64,000 nt of DNA from Gammaproteobacteria bacterium (GTDB taxonomy: Bacteria; Pseudomonadota; Gammaproteobacteria; Eutrophobiales; Eutrophobiaceae). The DNA is taken from positions 672,001 to 736,000 of the forward strand of contig CBDCTH010000012.1 of NCBI GenBank assembly GCA_965222155.1, read 5' to 3'. Below, in pieces: positions 1,598 through 6,849 of this stretch. Made by a program: the position numbers and the translations under genes. A model generated the notes under the pieces. It was not told where the DNA came from, did no database searches, and saw nothing but the letters and a program-made list of their open reading frames with translations. The first letter of the stretch is position 1. Each line of letters opens with the position of its first letter.

Positions 1598-2356
1598 TTA
1601 TGACTCTGTTGGGGTCATCGTCGTCAATGTTTTTTTCTGTTTTCGCATGGATTCACCCTTGAGTTGTATTTTGTAAGCATTATGCACCAGGCGGTCAAGG
1701 ATGGCATCGGCGAGGGTGGGGTCGCCGATGCTGTGATGCCATTTTTCGGCCGGTAATTGACTGGTAGCGAGGGTGGAGCGTGCGCCGTGGCGGTCTTCCA
1801 GGATTTCCAGCAGGTCACGGCGCTGCTCTGCGTTCAATTTGACCAGGCCCCAGTCATCGAGGATGAGGGCCTGGGTTTTTGCCAGGGTGGTGAGGAGCTT
1901 GGGATAGCGTCCATCGCCCTTGGCGATGGACAGGTCCTGGAGGAGTCTGGGCAGGCGCAGGTAGAGGGCGGTGTAGCCGTGCCGGCAGGCGTTGTGTGCC
2001 AGGGCACAGGCGAGCCAGGTTTTGCCGACGCCGGTGGGGCCGGTGATGAGGATATTGAGGTGTTCGCGGACCCACTGGCAGGTGGCCAGTGATTGCATCA
2101 GGGATTTATCCAGTCCGCGCGGGTGGCGATAGTCGATATCCTCCAGGGTGGCATTGTGTTTGAGGCGGGCGCATCGCAGCCGGTTGGACAGGCGTCGGTT
2201 GTCCCGTTCGGTTATCTCCCGGTCGACGAGCAGGCCGAGGCGTTCCTCGAAGCTGAGGGTATCGATATCGGGCACGGACATCTGCTCGGTGAGGGCGGCA
2301 GCCATACCGGTGCATTTCAAGGTCTGGAGTTTGTCCAGGGTGGGATGTATCAACAT
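1598..2356 (-). CDS. istB: IS21 helper ATPase IstB
   Basis: Walker A GPTGVGKT, LILDDWG, ADAILDRLVHNA, GESMRK; ATG at 2356 preceded by AGGAG. Confidence 0.95.
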   Translation of the reverse strand: MLIHPTLDKLQTLKCTGMAAALTEQMSVPDIDTLSFEERLGLLVDREITERDNRRLSNRLRCARLKHNATLEDIDYRHPRGLDKSLMQSLATCQWVREHLNILITGPTGVGKTWLACALAHNACRHGYTALYLRLPRLLQDLSIAKGDGRYPKLLTTLAKTQALILDDWGLVKLNAEQRRDLLEILEDRHGARSTLATSQLPAEKWHHSIGDPTLADAILDRLVHNAYKIQLKGESMRKQKKTLTTMTPTES

Positions 2357-2375
2357 AGCAGTCTCCTGTCGTGGG

Positions 2376-3917
2376 TCAGTGGTAGTAGGATGGGCCACGG
2401 ATATTGTCGTGGTCATCAGGTAAGGCCGCCTCGGTCTGCTCGGCGAGGGGTTGCCGGTCCAGGCCGTGGCGGAGGATGGATTCGATACTTTTGTAACTGT
2501 GGCTGCCCAGGGTGAGGGCGCGTTGGCAGGCGGCCTCCAGCCGGTCGTCGCCGTAGGTTTTAGCCAGGCGCAGGATCCCTAAGCAACTGCGGTAGGCCTG
2601 CTGGGGGTGCTTGCGGGCAGACAGGACACGGAGGATAAGGGTTTCTGTGGCCGGCCCGACCTGCGCGGCCCAGCGGCCCAGGCGTTGCGGGGACCACTCG
2701 CCGGCCTGGCGGTGCGCCTCGGGCATGTGGGCCGGGACGGTGGTATGACGTGCCTTATGATACGAGCGTCGATGGCTGGCGATGCGCTGGCCGCGATGAA
2801 AGCATTCAATGGTGTTGGCGGTGATGCGCACGTCCAGTTGTTTTTTGATGAGCGCGTGGGGCACGGAGTAGTAATGGCCATGGACCTCGATGTGATAGTC
2901 GATATGGACCCGCGCCTGCTTCCACTCGGCGTATTCGTACGCTTCGACGGGCAGGGGGCGCAGGGCCGGTTTATCCAGTTGCTCAAACAGCGCGCGCCGG
3001 GTGCCCGGCAGTTTCTTGAAGGGCCGGTTGTTGAGCGTCTCCAGCAACGCCCGGATGGCGCGGTTCAACTCTGCCAGGGAGAAGCACTGACGCTGGCGCA
3101 GGGCGGCGAGGATCCAGCGCTCTACCACCTGTACCGCGACCTCGGCTTTCGCTTTGTCACGGGGACGACGCACCCGTGCCGGGACAATGGCGACCCCGTA
3201 ATGGGTGGCCAGGTCCTGGTAGGTGGGGTTGATGTCCGGCTCATAGCGATGCGCACGGCTCACCCCGGCGCGTAAATTATCCGGCACCACCACCTCCGGC
3301 ACACCGCCCAGGTAGGTAAAACAGCGCACGTGGGCGCCGATCCAATCTTCCAGGCCCTGGCTCCAGGTGGCCTCGGCATAGGTGTAGTTCGACGCGCCCA
3401 GCGCTGCCACAAACACCTCTGCCTCACGGACTTCCCCGGTTGCCGGGTTGATGACCTGAGCACGCATACCGGCATAATCCACGAACAGCTTCTCACCGGC
3501 CCGGTGCTCCTGGCGCATGACCAGATCCAGCTTGCCACGCCACGTCCGATAATGCTGGCAGAACCAGGTGTACTGATAGCCTTGCGGGTGAGTCTGGCGA
3601 TACTCATGCCATAACAACTGCAAGGTGACGCCCGGGCGTTTCAACTCCCGATGAATGTGTGACCAATCGGGCACGCCGCGGGCCGCGGCGGGTACAGCTG
3701 GGGCGGGCGGAAACAGCAGACGCTCCAGCGCCCCGTCATCCAGCGCCGCAGGCAGCGGCCAACCCAGCCCGGCCGCCTCGGCCCGGCGCAGGTACTCATC
3801 CACCGCCGGACGGGAAATGCCACAACTCCTGGCTGTCTGGCGTTTGCTCAGGCCCTGGCTCCAGCACAGGCGTAATACGTCTTTTATCTTTCTCATGGAC
3901 AACCTCTTTGCAGGCAT
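2376..3917 (-). CDS. istA: IS21 DDE transposase IstA
   Basis: N-terminal HTH, AGEKLFVDYAG, VPDNLR, PRDKAKAE, HDNIRGPSYYH. Confidence 0.95.
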   Translation of the reverse strand: MPAKRLSMRKIKDVLRLCWSQGLSKRQTARSCGISRPAVDEYLRRAEAAGLGWPLPAALDDGALERLLFPPAPAVPAAARGVPDWSHIHRELKRPGVTLQLLWHEYRQTHPQGYQYTWFCQHYRTWRGKLDLVMRQEHRAGEKLFVDYAGMRAQVINPATGEVREAEVFVAALGASNYTYAEATWSQGLEDWIGAHVRCFTYLGGVPEVVVPDNLRAGVSRAHRYEPDINPTYQDLATHYGVAIVPARVRRPRDKAKAEVAVQVVERWILAALRQRQCFSLAELNRAIRALLETLNNRPFKKLPGTRRALFEQLDKPALRPLPVEAYEYAEWKQARVHIDYHIEVHGHYYSVPHALIKKQLDVRITANTIECFHRGQRIASHRRSYHKARHTTVPAHMPEAHRQAGEWSPQRLGRWAAQVGPATETLILRVLSARKHPQQAYRSCLGILRLAKTYGDDRLEAACQRALTLGSHSYKSIESILRHGLDRQPLAEQTEAALPDDHDNIRGPSYYH

Positions 3918-4598: not shown

Positions 4599-4924
4599 TG
4601 GTGGGCCCGGTAGGACTTGAACCTACGACCAATGGATTCACTTTACCCTTTTATTTCTAAAAGGAGCGGACTATCTCACTACCCTCAACCGAATGCTAGG
4701 GTACGGGACGCTCAAGCCTGTTATTAAGAACACTCCAGTTCCCAGGTAGTCTCTGCACCTTCCGAGGGTGTACCCCCGGCTTGGCTCAGGGTTGCCAGTC
4801 CTTCCGCCTTGGCAGGCAGGTGGATTAAGGTTTCCCTGAATTCATCCCGTTCATTTCATATTTTTCAATATGAACGCACCATTTTCGATGAGTCCACTGC
4901 TCTAACCAGCTGAGCTACAGGCCC
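4599..4924 (-). tRNA. tRNA-Ile2 (anticodon CAU), exons 4924-4888 and 4638-4599, split by a group I intron
   Basis: Spliced 77-nt sequence GGGCCUGUAGCUCAGCUGGUUAGAGCAGUGGACUCAU|AAUCCAUUGGUCGUAGGUUCAAGUCCUACCGGGCCCACCA folds as a cloverleaf with CUCAUAA loop and CCA end; ileX-like sequence and position downstream of rpoD. Confidence 0.92.
4639..4887 (-). ncRNA. Group I self-splicing intron (249 nt, no ORF) in tRNA anticodon loop
   Basis: Follows U, ends in G; P1 CAUCG-AAAA-UGGUG with U.G wobble; P2 and P9 GAAA tetraloop hairpins; P4/P5 UUCAGGGAAACC...GGCAACCCUGAG; P7 GACUA/UAGUC; P3 ACGGGAUG/CGUCCCGU. Confidence 0.92.
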
Positions 4925-4965
4925 AAATAATAATAATAAGAATCACATATAATACGACAGCTTTC

Positions 4966-4990
4966 AAAAAGCAACCCTGGCAGGTTGCTC
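4966..4990 (-). terminator. Probable intrinsic terminator after rpoD
   Basis: Minus strand AGCAACC-tgccag-GGTTGCT followed by a T run. Confidence 0.55.

Positions 4991-5007: not shown

Positions 5008-6849
<1,842 letters not shown>

Follow-up and report, generated by a model that had tools for sequence, protein, structure and literature searches.

A compact group I intron, probably of the IC3 type, splits the only tRNA-Ile2-like gene of a gammaproteobacterial assembly

Background

How does a bacterium read AUA when the only gene found for the tRNA that should decode it is interrupted directly after the anticodon? The question is raised by a stretch of gammaproteobacterial DNA of 64,000 nucleotides, analysed as a whole and referred to below as the window, in which a tRNA(CAU) gene is split by an insert of 249 nt. 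Bacterial group I introns occur mainly in tRNA and rRNA genes, as stated in the available part of PMC3984707. The closest described case is the pre-tRNA-Ile of Azoarcus BH72, for which the accessible text of PMC13168695 reports an intron of 205 nt in the anticodon loop, a 3' exon of 40 nt and efficient self-splicing in vitro. Further, the available part of Williams 2020 (bioRxiv 10.1101/2020.01.27.920355) gives Ile2.5Ug as one of four classical classes of bacterial tRNA introns, all of type IC3, with a total of 3453 introns in about 80,000 genomes.

We hold with high confidence that the locus is a single tRNA-Ile2 gene split by a compact, probably IC3, group I intron of the Azoarcus type, 'Ile2.5Ug', which would act as a ribozyme, splice in the cell and release a tRNA that is probably modified to the lysidine form.

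Locus and exact boundaries

The split tRNA(CAU) gene occupies positions 4599-4924 of the window on the minus strand and has three parts:

4888..4924, minus strand: 5' exon of tRNA-Ile2(CAU), 37 nt, ending in the anticodon CAU (4890-4888); defined by the ARAGORN cloverleaf after excision and equal to bases 1-37 of the uninterrupted genes in 11 congeners
4639..4887, minus strand: group I intron, 249 nt, ORF-less, IC3-like, 'Ile2.5Ug', inserted after the anticodon; first base 4887 (C), omega-G 4639; defined by RF00028, the empty-site alleles and covariation
4599..4638, minus strand: 3' exon of tRNA-Ile2, 40 nt, from AAUCC to the encoded CCA; defined by ARAGORN and the empty-site alleles

The Rfam model RF00028 matched positions 4647-4899(-) over its full length (1-253) with 85.1 bits (E 3e-20), against a gathering score of 50 bits, and this was the sole RNA match at gathering level in the 64-kb window. 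When 4639-4887 was excised in a script, a sequence of 77 nt remained, which ARAGORN folds into a clean cloverleaf with the anticodon CAT. Over its whole length of 40 nt the 3' exon shares 80% identity with E. coli genes annotated as tRNA-Ile(CAT). Since in 11 of the 22 other species of the genus the segments 1-37 and 287-326 of the split gene follow each other without a gap, chance is excluded as the origin of this arrangement. Together with the cloverleaf, these empty-site alleles place the insertion between nucleotides 36 and 37, after CAU, so that the 5' exon ends in the U of CAU and the intron in G (4639). The bases flanking each junction differ, and therefore the boundaries 4639-4887 cannot slide.

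No ORF of 60 aa or more was found within the intron 4639-4887, and the ORFs of at least 30 aa touching it are 31-43 aa long and mostly on the opposite strand. These results agree with a preliminary description of the same DNA, which had proposed that a tRNA-Ile2-type gene is interrupted after CAU by a group I intron lacking a homing endonuclease gene, and that removal of the insert restores a 77-nt tRNA; the strand, absent from that description, is the minus strand.

The gene was also said there to be easily missed by standard annotation, which holds for ARAGORN. Run in default mode, ARAGORN reported no tRNA anywhere in the 64-kb window. With its intron option the gene was found and the intron given its right length (249), but it was placed 2 nt off and the gene was called tRNA-Gln(CTG). 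We rejected this call, as it puts a C at position -1, breaks the U.G pair of P1 and conflicts with the empty-site alleles. The boundary problem of ARAGORN is also described in the accessible portion of Williams 2020 (bioRxiv 10.1101/2020.01.27.920355).

Gene neighbourhood and transcription signals

The gene order on the minus strand is dnaG, rpoD and then the split tRNA-Ile2, with a mobile element further downstream:

5008..6849, minus strand: rpoD (sigma-70), 613 aa, six Pfam sigma-70 domains; its stop codon is followed after 84 nt by the tRNA on the same strand
1598-3917, minus strand: IS21-family element, separated from the tRNA by about 680 nt on its downstream side; it encodes an IstA-like transposase of 513 aa, with rve, HTH and Mu-transposase C-terminal domains, and behind it IstB (272 aa, 264 bits)

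In all 26 loci compared, of which 22 belong to the genus, 2 to other genera of its family and 2 to other families, rpoD lies upstream of tRNA-Ile2. The 1.5 kb downstream of the tRNA have essentially no counterpart in 19 related loci, including that of a 98%-identical relative, the sole match being 61 nt in one locus, and no conserved neighbour besides rpoD was seen among the related loci.

A consensus scan of the minus strand from rpoD to the tRNA gave no promoter-like site. By eye, a 7-bp hairpin (AGCAACC...GGUUGCU) followed by a short U-run can be seen at 4965-4989(-), 19 nt past the rpoD stop codon. This by-eye candidate, for which the consensus scan made no call, might serve to terminate rpoD shortly before the tRNA.

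Logan contigs from four metatranscriptome runs, which represent related organisms, contained none that showed transcription or splicing in the strain of the window. One contig (X1, 235 nt) is wholly intronic (4652-4886), and another (X3, 311 nt) covers 4603-4913 unspliced with 17 differences. A contig of 170 nt (X2) skips exactly 4639-4887 and joins 4638 to 4888. Its match ends at 4918 and its sequence beyond the tRNA differs from the window on both sides, hence we rejected it as a splice product; probably it is an intronless gene or transcript of another organism.

Secondary structure and covariation of the intron

The helices P1-P9 were drawn by hand on the window sequence, with the Rfam alignment and an alignment of 14 split genes as guides. 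Pair counts were taken from an alignment of 56 distinct split genes, made up of the window, 13 loci of relatives and 42 of the intron-positive named loci described further below; the remaining 31 of the 73 listed loci of this last kind were excluded for failure of the exon pattern, truncation of the locus or an HMM E-value exceeding 1e-30. The elements are, in the order of transcription:

4877..4890, minus strand: P1, exon CAU (4890-4888) with the internal guide GUG (4879-4877); pairs C-G, A-U and U.G, of which U4888.G4879 is the splice-site wobble
4855..4874, minus strand: P2 hairpin, 8 bp with a GAAA tetraloop; both sides changed in 8 of 8 pairs
4843..4850, minus strand: 5' strand of P3, pairing with 4703-4710; both sides changed in 4 of 8 pairs
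4786..4839, minus strand: P4 (4834-4839 with 4786-4791), P5 (4829-4830 with 4795-4796) and the variable P5a arm (4799-4824)
4757..4785, minus strand: P6 (4783-4785 with 4757-4759) and P6a (4773-4779 with 4762-4768, loop UACA)
4747..4751, minus strand: 5' strand of P7, GACUA, pairing with UAGUC at 4669-4673 and forming a pseudoknot with P3
4717..4746, minus strand: extra hairpin between P7 and P3', 30 nt; outer 4 bp, inner 5 bp and a conserved internal loop CUUAAUAAC
4682..4701, minus strand: P8 hairpin, outer three pairs conserved, inner part variable, limited by the alignment and poorly supported; 73% paired overall
4647..4664, minus strand: P9 hairpin, 7 bp with a GAAA tetraloop; both sides changed in 7 of 7 pairs

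All proposed pairs, 73 in the intron and 21 in the tRNA, are standard pairs in the window sequence. Over the 56 split genes 95.3% of the cells pair, compared with 36.0-46.0% in six slid controls; it should be noted that the structure was derived from the window sequence and so has an advantage over the controls in this measure, of which the counts of changes on both sides are independent. Such changes were found in 47 of the 94 pairs. The covariation score was 0.281 against 0.048-0.068 for the slid versions, and none of 500 shuffles reached it. An unconstrained fold of the intron gave -85.6 kcal/mol (z = -3.38) and recovered P2, P4, P5, P5a, P8 and P9.

The U.G wobble of P1 is present in 55 of the 56 sequences. 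In G038, a genome of another family of the same class, P1 is formed by exon CUU and guide GAG, both strands having changed. We discarded another conceivable outer stem for P2 (CGUU with AACG), since it competes with the covarying P3, and dropped the outermost P3 pair (4850 with 4703), which is unpaired in 44 of the 56 sequences. P4 and P5 are paired in 100% of the cells and P6 is invariant, while P6a has changes on both sides in 6 of its 7 pairs with 99.7% of cells paired. The P5a arm is lineage-specific, poorly aligned and poorly supported, with 74-80% paired. All five P7 pairs are invariant in the 56 sequences, so that covariation neither supports nor contradicts this helix; the core motifs AGAGACUA and GAGAUAGUCC beside it agree with the Rfam consensus. 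The omega-G at window position 4639 (G286 of the alignment) is invariant as well. The P1 wobble, the P2-P9 elements, P7 GACUA (4751-4747)/UAGUC (4673-4669) and the terminal G at 4639 had all been named in the preliminary description and were found in place.

The hairpin between P7 and P3' is paired in 100% of the cells of the 56 sequences, with changes on both sides in 5 of 9 pairs. In the RF00028 alignment it is scored as an insertion of 34 nt and it is absent from the Rfam consensus. It was found in the introns of Comamonas and Azonexus and is missing from a 223-nt Polynucleobacter intron at the same site. P1, P2, P3-P9, P5a, P6a and the GAAA loops on P2 and P9 presumably fit the IC3 architecture, the P7-P3' hairpin being outside the Rfam consensus.

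tRNA identity and AUA decoding

The spliced product is identical to an annotated (RefSeq) E. coli tRNA-Ile(CAT) at 63 of 77 positions, and to the Met-like and initiator-like CAT tRNAs of its own genome at 54 and 43, respectively. The pairs G3:C70, C4:G69 and C5:G68 are invariant in all 56 split genes. The accessible text of PMC11947777 gives as TilS identity elements the pairs 3:70 and 4:69 in Burkholderia, or 4:69 and 5:68 in E. coli.

ARAGORN found 46 tRNAs in the assembly (4.55 Mb on 12 contigs). Besides the split gene only two of the tRNAs in the assembly have the anticodon CAT. One is initiator-like, with a 1:72 mismatch and a GGG/CCC anticodon stem; the other is Met-like, and we take it to resemble the elongator tRNA-Met of E. 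coli closely. There was no tRNA-Ile(TAT) among the 46, and a blastn search of the assembly with the two exons and the intron detected none of them a second time, so that neither program gave an intronless tRNA-Ile2. The spliced product is thus tRNA-Ile2-like, and the split gene is the only such gene in the assembly. The intron-bearing congeners gave the same picture; in 10 of 10 no second contiguous tRNA-Ile2 was found at E <= 0.001, and five of these are single-contig genomes.

The assembly has an estimated contamination of 7.28% in addition to its 12 contigs, and a second tRNA-Ile2 copy that was left unassembled is still conceivable. As a separate observation, there are two copies each of tRNA-Thr(CGT) and tRNA-Gln(CTG), located on small contigs as well as on C10 (G000 contigs C7, C8 and C10); with the 7.28% contamination this points to duplication or redundancy among the contigs.

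A tilS gene is present, with 188.8 bits against a cut-off of 93.6 and an open frame of 444 aa. In a crude set of 2168 non-overlapping ORFs of at least 250 aa, which are not curated genes, the frequency of AUA is 12.2 per 1000 codons, its share of the Ile codons is 20.6%, and 2127 of the 2168 contain it. The split gene is the sole one of tRNA-Ile2 type, a tRNA-Ile(UAU) is missing from the assembly, a tilS gene exists and AUA is a frequent codon; AUA decoding therefore very probably depends on splicing. The same dependence had been put forward earlier as a possibility, and with no intronless second copy in the assembly it seems a sound one.

Distribution within the genus

We searched 40 relatives with the 326-nt split gene, 22 of them being the other species of the genus. 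The whole split gene was found in 10 of these 22 at 85-98% identity, and one congener genome (G011, 83% complete) had no match to it. A flank tree was built from 732 columns of the rpoD flank, that is from a single locus, and is not a species tree; left out of it were G011, with no match, and G038, where the tRNA is a different one and synteny with rpoD is missing.

The genus has 11 species with the intron, and 9 of these, among them that of the window, form part of one starred clade of this tree. The intronless G013 is nested in this clade as sister to the intron-bearing G015 (support 99/93), and the two most divergent introns (G012 and G017) are on the deepest host branches. On the rpoD-flank tree at least three gains or losses are needed within the genus. 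Distances between introns are correlated with those between rpoD flanks, with a Mantel r of 0.81 that was reached in 0 of 5000 permutations; divergence is slower in the intron than in the flank. The simplest reading of this pattern would be vertical descent under purifying selection combined with precise losses. Hence we suggest that the intron was mostly inherited vertically in the genus and was precisely lost several times, gain being less likely.

It might instead have been acquired recently and horizontally, by reverse splicing or by recombination of the whole tRNA locus, and not from the ancestor of the genus. The patchy occurrence, in 10 of 22 congeners and in 9 of 150 other families of the class (see below), fits such an origin, as do the three or more changes within the genus and the intronless G013 beside G015 (99/93); a related intron in the tRNA-Lys(CUU) of G038 further implies that the lineage has moved between tRNAs. 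The correlation of intron and flank distances (r 0.81) speaks against it, and so do the single starred clade with 9 of the 11 intron-bearing species, the position of the G012 and G017 introns on the deepest branches and the lack of a homing endonuclease gene. We consider recent horizontal acquisition unlikely and favour vertical descent with losses.

Occurrence in other bacteria

A scan of named genomes for a G before the conserved 3' half of tRNA-Ile2 gave at least 120 loci. An HMM built from introns of the window family matches at least 73 loci (73 of the 120 listed), with the same omega-G end. By NCBI class these 73 listed loci comprise 56 from Gammaproteobacteria, 12 from Betaproteobacteria, 3 from Pseudomonadota without a class, 1 without lineage and 1 from Verrucomicrobiales, the last being a contig of 2 kb. 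Gammaproteobacterial orders among the matches listed include Steroidobacterales, Woeseiales, Pseudomonadales and Acidiferrobacterales, and betaproteobacterial hosts among them include Comamonas testosteroni, Giesbergeria and Azonexus. The nearest named homologue among the matches listed is a 'Gammaproteobacteria bacterium' MAG at 82.7% identity.

When each family of the window's class was represented by one genome, 9 of 150 families other than the window's own had a BLAST match to the intron at E <= 1e-10; the host gene was checked for three of the nine, and in G038 it is a tRNA-Lys. The intron is a minority feature, yet widely recurrent. The view that it is unusual in a gammaproteobacterial context, expressed in the preliminary description, is not upheld by the at least 73 homologous loci, 56 of those listed being gammaproteobacterial, nor by the nine families.

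In G038 the homologue interrupts a tRNA-Lys(CUU) gene (L017:1501-1814) at the same position of the anticodon loop, with 68% identity over the whole split gene. The guide is changed from GUG to GAG, matching CUU, and the genome also has an uninterrupted tRNA-Ile2-like gene. It looks as if the intron may have moved here between two tRNAs with anticodon arms that differ by one base.

The other 47 of the 120 listed loci have no match to the intron HMM; some of them are short Azoarcus-like introns, and others include Syntrophales and Actinomycetota. In Polynucleobacter and other Burkholderiales (L025, L049, L061, L074 and others) we observed tRNA-Ile2 introns of 202-223 nt at the same site, which the window-family HMM misses or barely detects. 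The Polynucleobacter intron L025 has an Rfam score of 54.5 bits and no insertion between P7 and P3'. Given such short introns without the insertion, the Ile2 introns comprise at least two sub-lineages of different structure, one having the extra hairpin and one lacking it. The 223-nt Polynucleobacter intron we take to be Azoarcus-like.

The same genome as that of the window also has a 23S rRNA gene (L146:2186-6358, equal to G000:C12:1664485-1668657, minus strand) of 4173 nt, compared with 2925 positions of the model. It contains a group I match above the gathering score (L146:3964-4307, 55.2 bits) and a second one below it (L146:3149-3439, 32.3 bits). An ORF of 160 aa on the same strand (L146:3173-3655) overlaps the latter match and carries a LAGLIDADG_1 domain (86.5 bits). 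The genome thus appears to hold three group I introns; a 23S intron encodes a LAGLIDADG protein, whereas the tRNA-Ile2 intron is without an endonuclease ORF.

Comparison with known introns

The intron shares with that of Azoarcus, as far as PMC13168695 was accessible, the host tRNA, the site after CAU in the anticodon loop, the 40-nt 3' exon and a compact form without ORF, which bears out the earlier claim that the two occupy the same position. A guide triplet pairing with CAU is likewise described in the available part of PMC2241849. Set against these sources, the window intron is longer (249 nt compared with 205 nt); its P5a arm extends further and the P7-P3' hairpin comes in addition, as judged at the level of published descriptions. 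The nearest proxy for BH72 was the intron of Azonexus (Rhodocyclales), which the window-family HMM matches with E 3e-35.

From the class Ile2.5Ug, as presented in the accessible part of Williams 2020, the window intron shows no difference in kind: the host is tRNA-Ile2, the position in the anticodon loop is 5, U is at -1 and G at omega. The introns of cyanobacterial and plastid tRNA-Leu(UAA) and of tRNA-fMet (Leu.3Ug and fMet.2Ug in the same text) are similar in being compact group I introns, of type IC3 there and probably here, in anticodon loops of bacterial tRNAs and of patchy distribution; they differ in the host tRNA and in the loop position, which is 3 or 2 there and 5 here. The window intron is hence a well-preserved member of a classical, catalogued class. 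Only two points go beyond the textbook case: the conserved extra hairpin, which the members of a large sub-lineage have in common, and the fact that within one genus some species carry the intron and others lack it.

Proposed splicing pathway

From the anatomy above we suggest the following course of events. The precursor would fold into P1-P9, with the guide GUG paired to the anticodon CAU as P1. An external guanosine would then attack after U36, and the freed 5' exon would attack after the terminal G, so that the exons are joined to the 77-nt tRNA. TilS and IleRS would act on this product, TilS converting the CAU tRNA to the lysidine form, which would read AUA. Because AUA is a common codon, efficient splicing would be required for growth, and the gene would then be essential.

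Splicing in vivo might need a host protein or RNA chaperone, with the P7-P3' hairpin as a candidate binding site. A conserved hairpin of 30 nt with a nearly invariant internal loop, absent from both the Rfam consensus and the short Polynucleobacter intron, would suit such a role, and protein-assisted group I splicing in other systems is described in the available part of PMC3984707. On the other hand, the related Azoarcus pre-tRNA-Ile splices itself efficiently in vitro according to the accessible text of PMC13168695. All core elements and two GAAA tetraloops are present in the window intron, and no conserved neighbour gene was seen except rpoD. A need for a helper therefore seems quite improbable, and unaided self-splicing is the course that we prefer.

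Further, one may speculate that the intron is kept because it is useful. Since the sole tRNA-Ile2 would need a ribozyme step with guanosine as cofactor, and AUA is common, splicing could make AUA decoding, and with it bulk translation, responsive to folding conditions or to the guanine-nucleotide pool, and the P7-P3' hairpin could be an undescribed regulatory or tertiary-contact module; we regard this as very doubtful. It is barely credible that the split gene is a relic, either dead or spliced poorly, and that another, missed tRNA decodes AUA: no splicing was evident among the RNA-library contigs, the assembly has 12 contigs and 7.28% contamination and ARAGORN may miss unusual tRNAs, but the structure is under strong constraint with compensatory change in 47 pairs, divergence is slower in the intron than in the adjacent rpoD DNA, the split gene is the only copy in five single-contig congeners, tilS is intact and AUA occurs in 2127 of 2168 long ORFs.

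Implications

As default tRNA finders miss or misname the gene, this genus and many other Gammaproteobacteria will seem to be without an essential AUA-reading tRNA, and annotation pipelines should search for split tRNA-Ile2. With AUA common, sister species that have and lack the intron at the same rpoD-tRNA locus offer a natural comparison of what such an intron costs or benefits its host.
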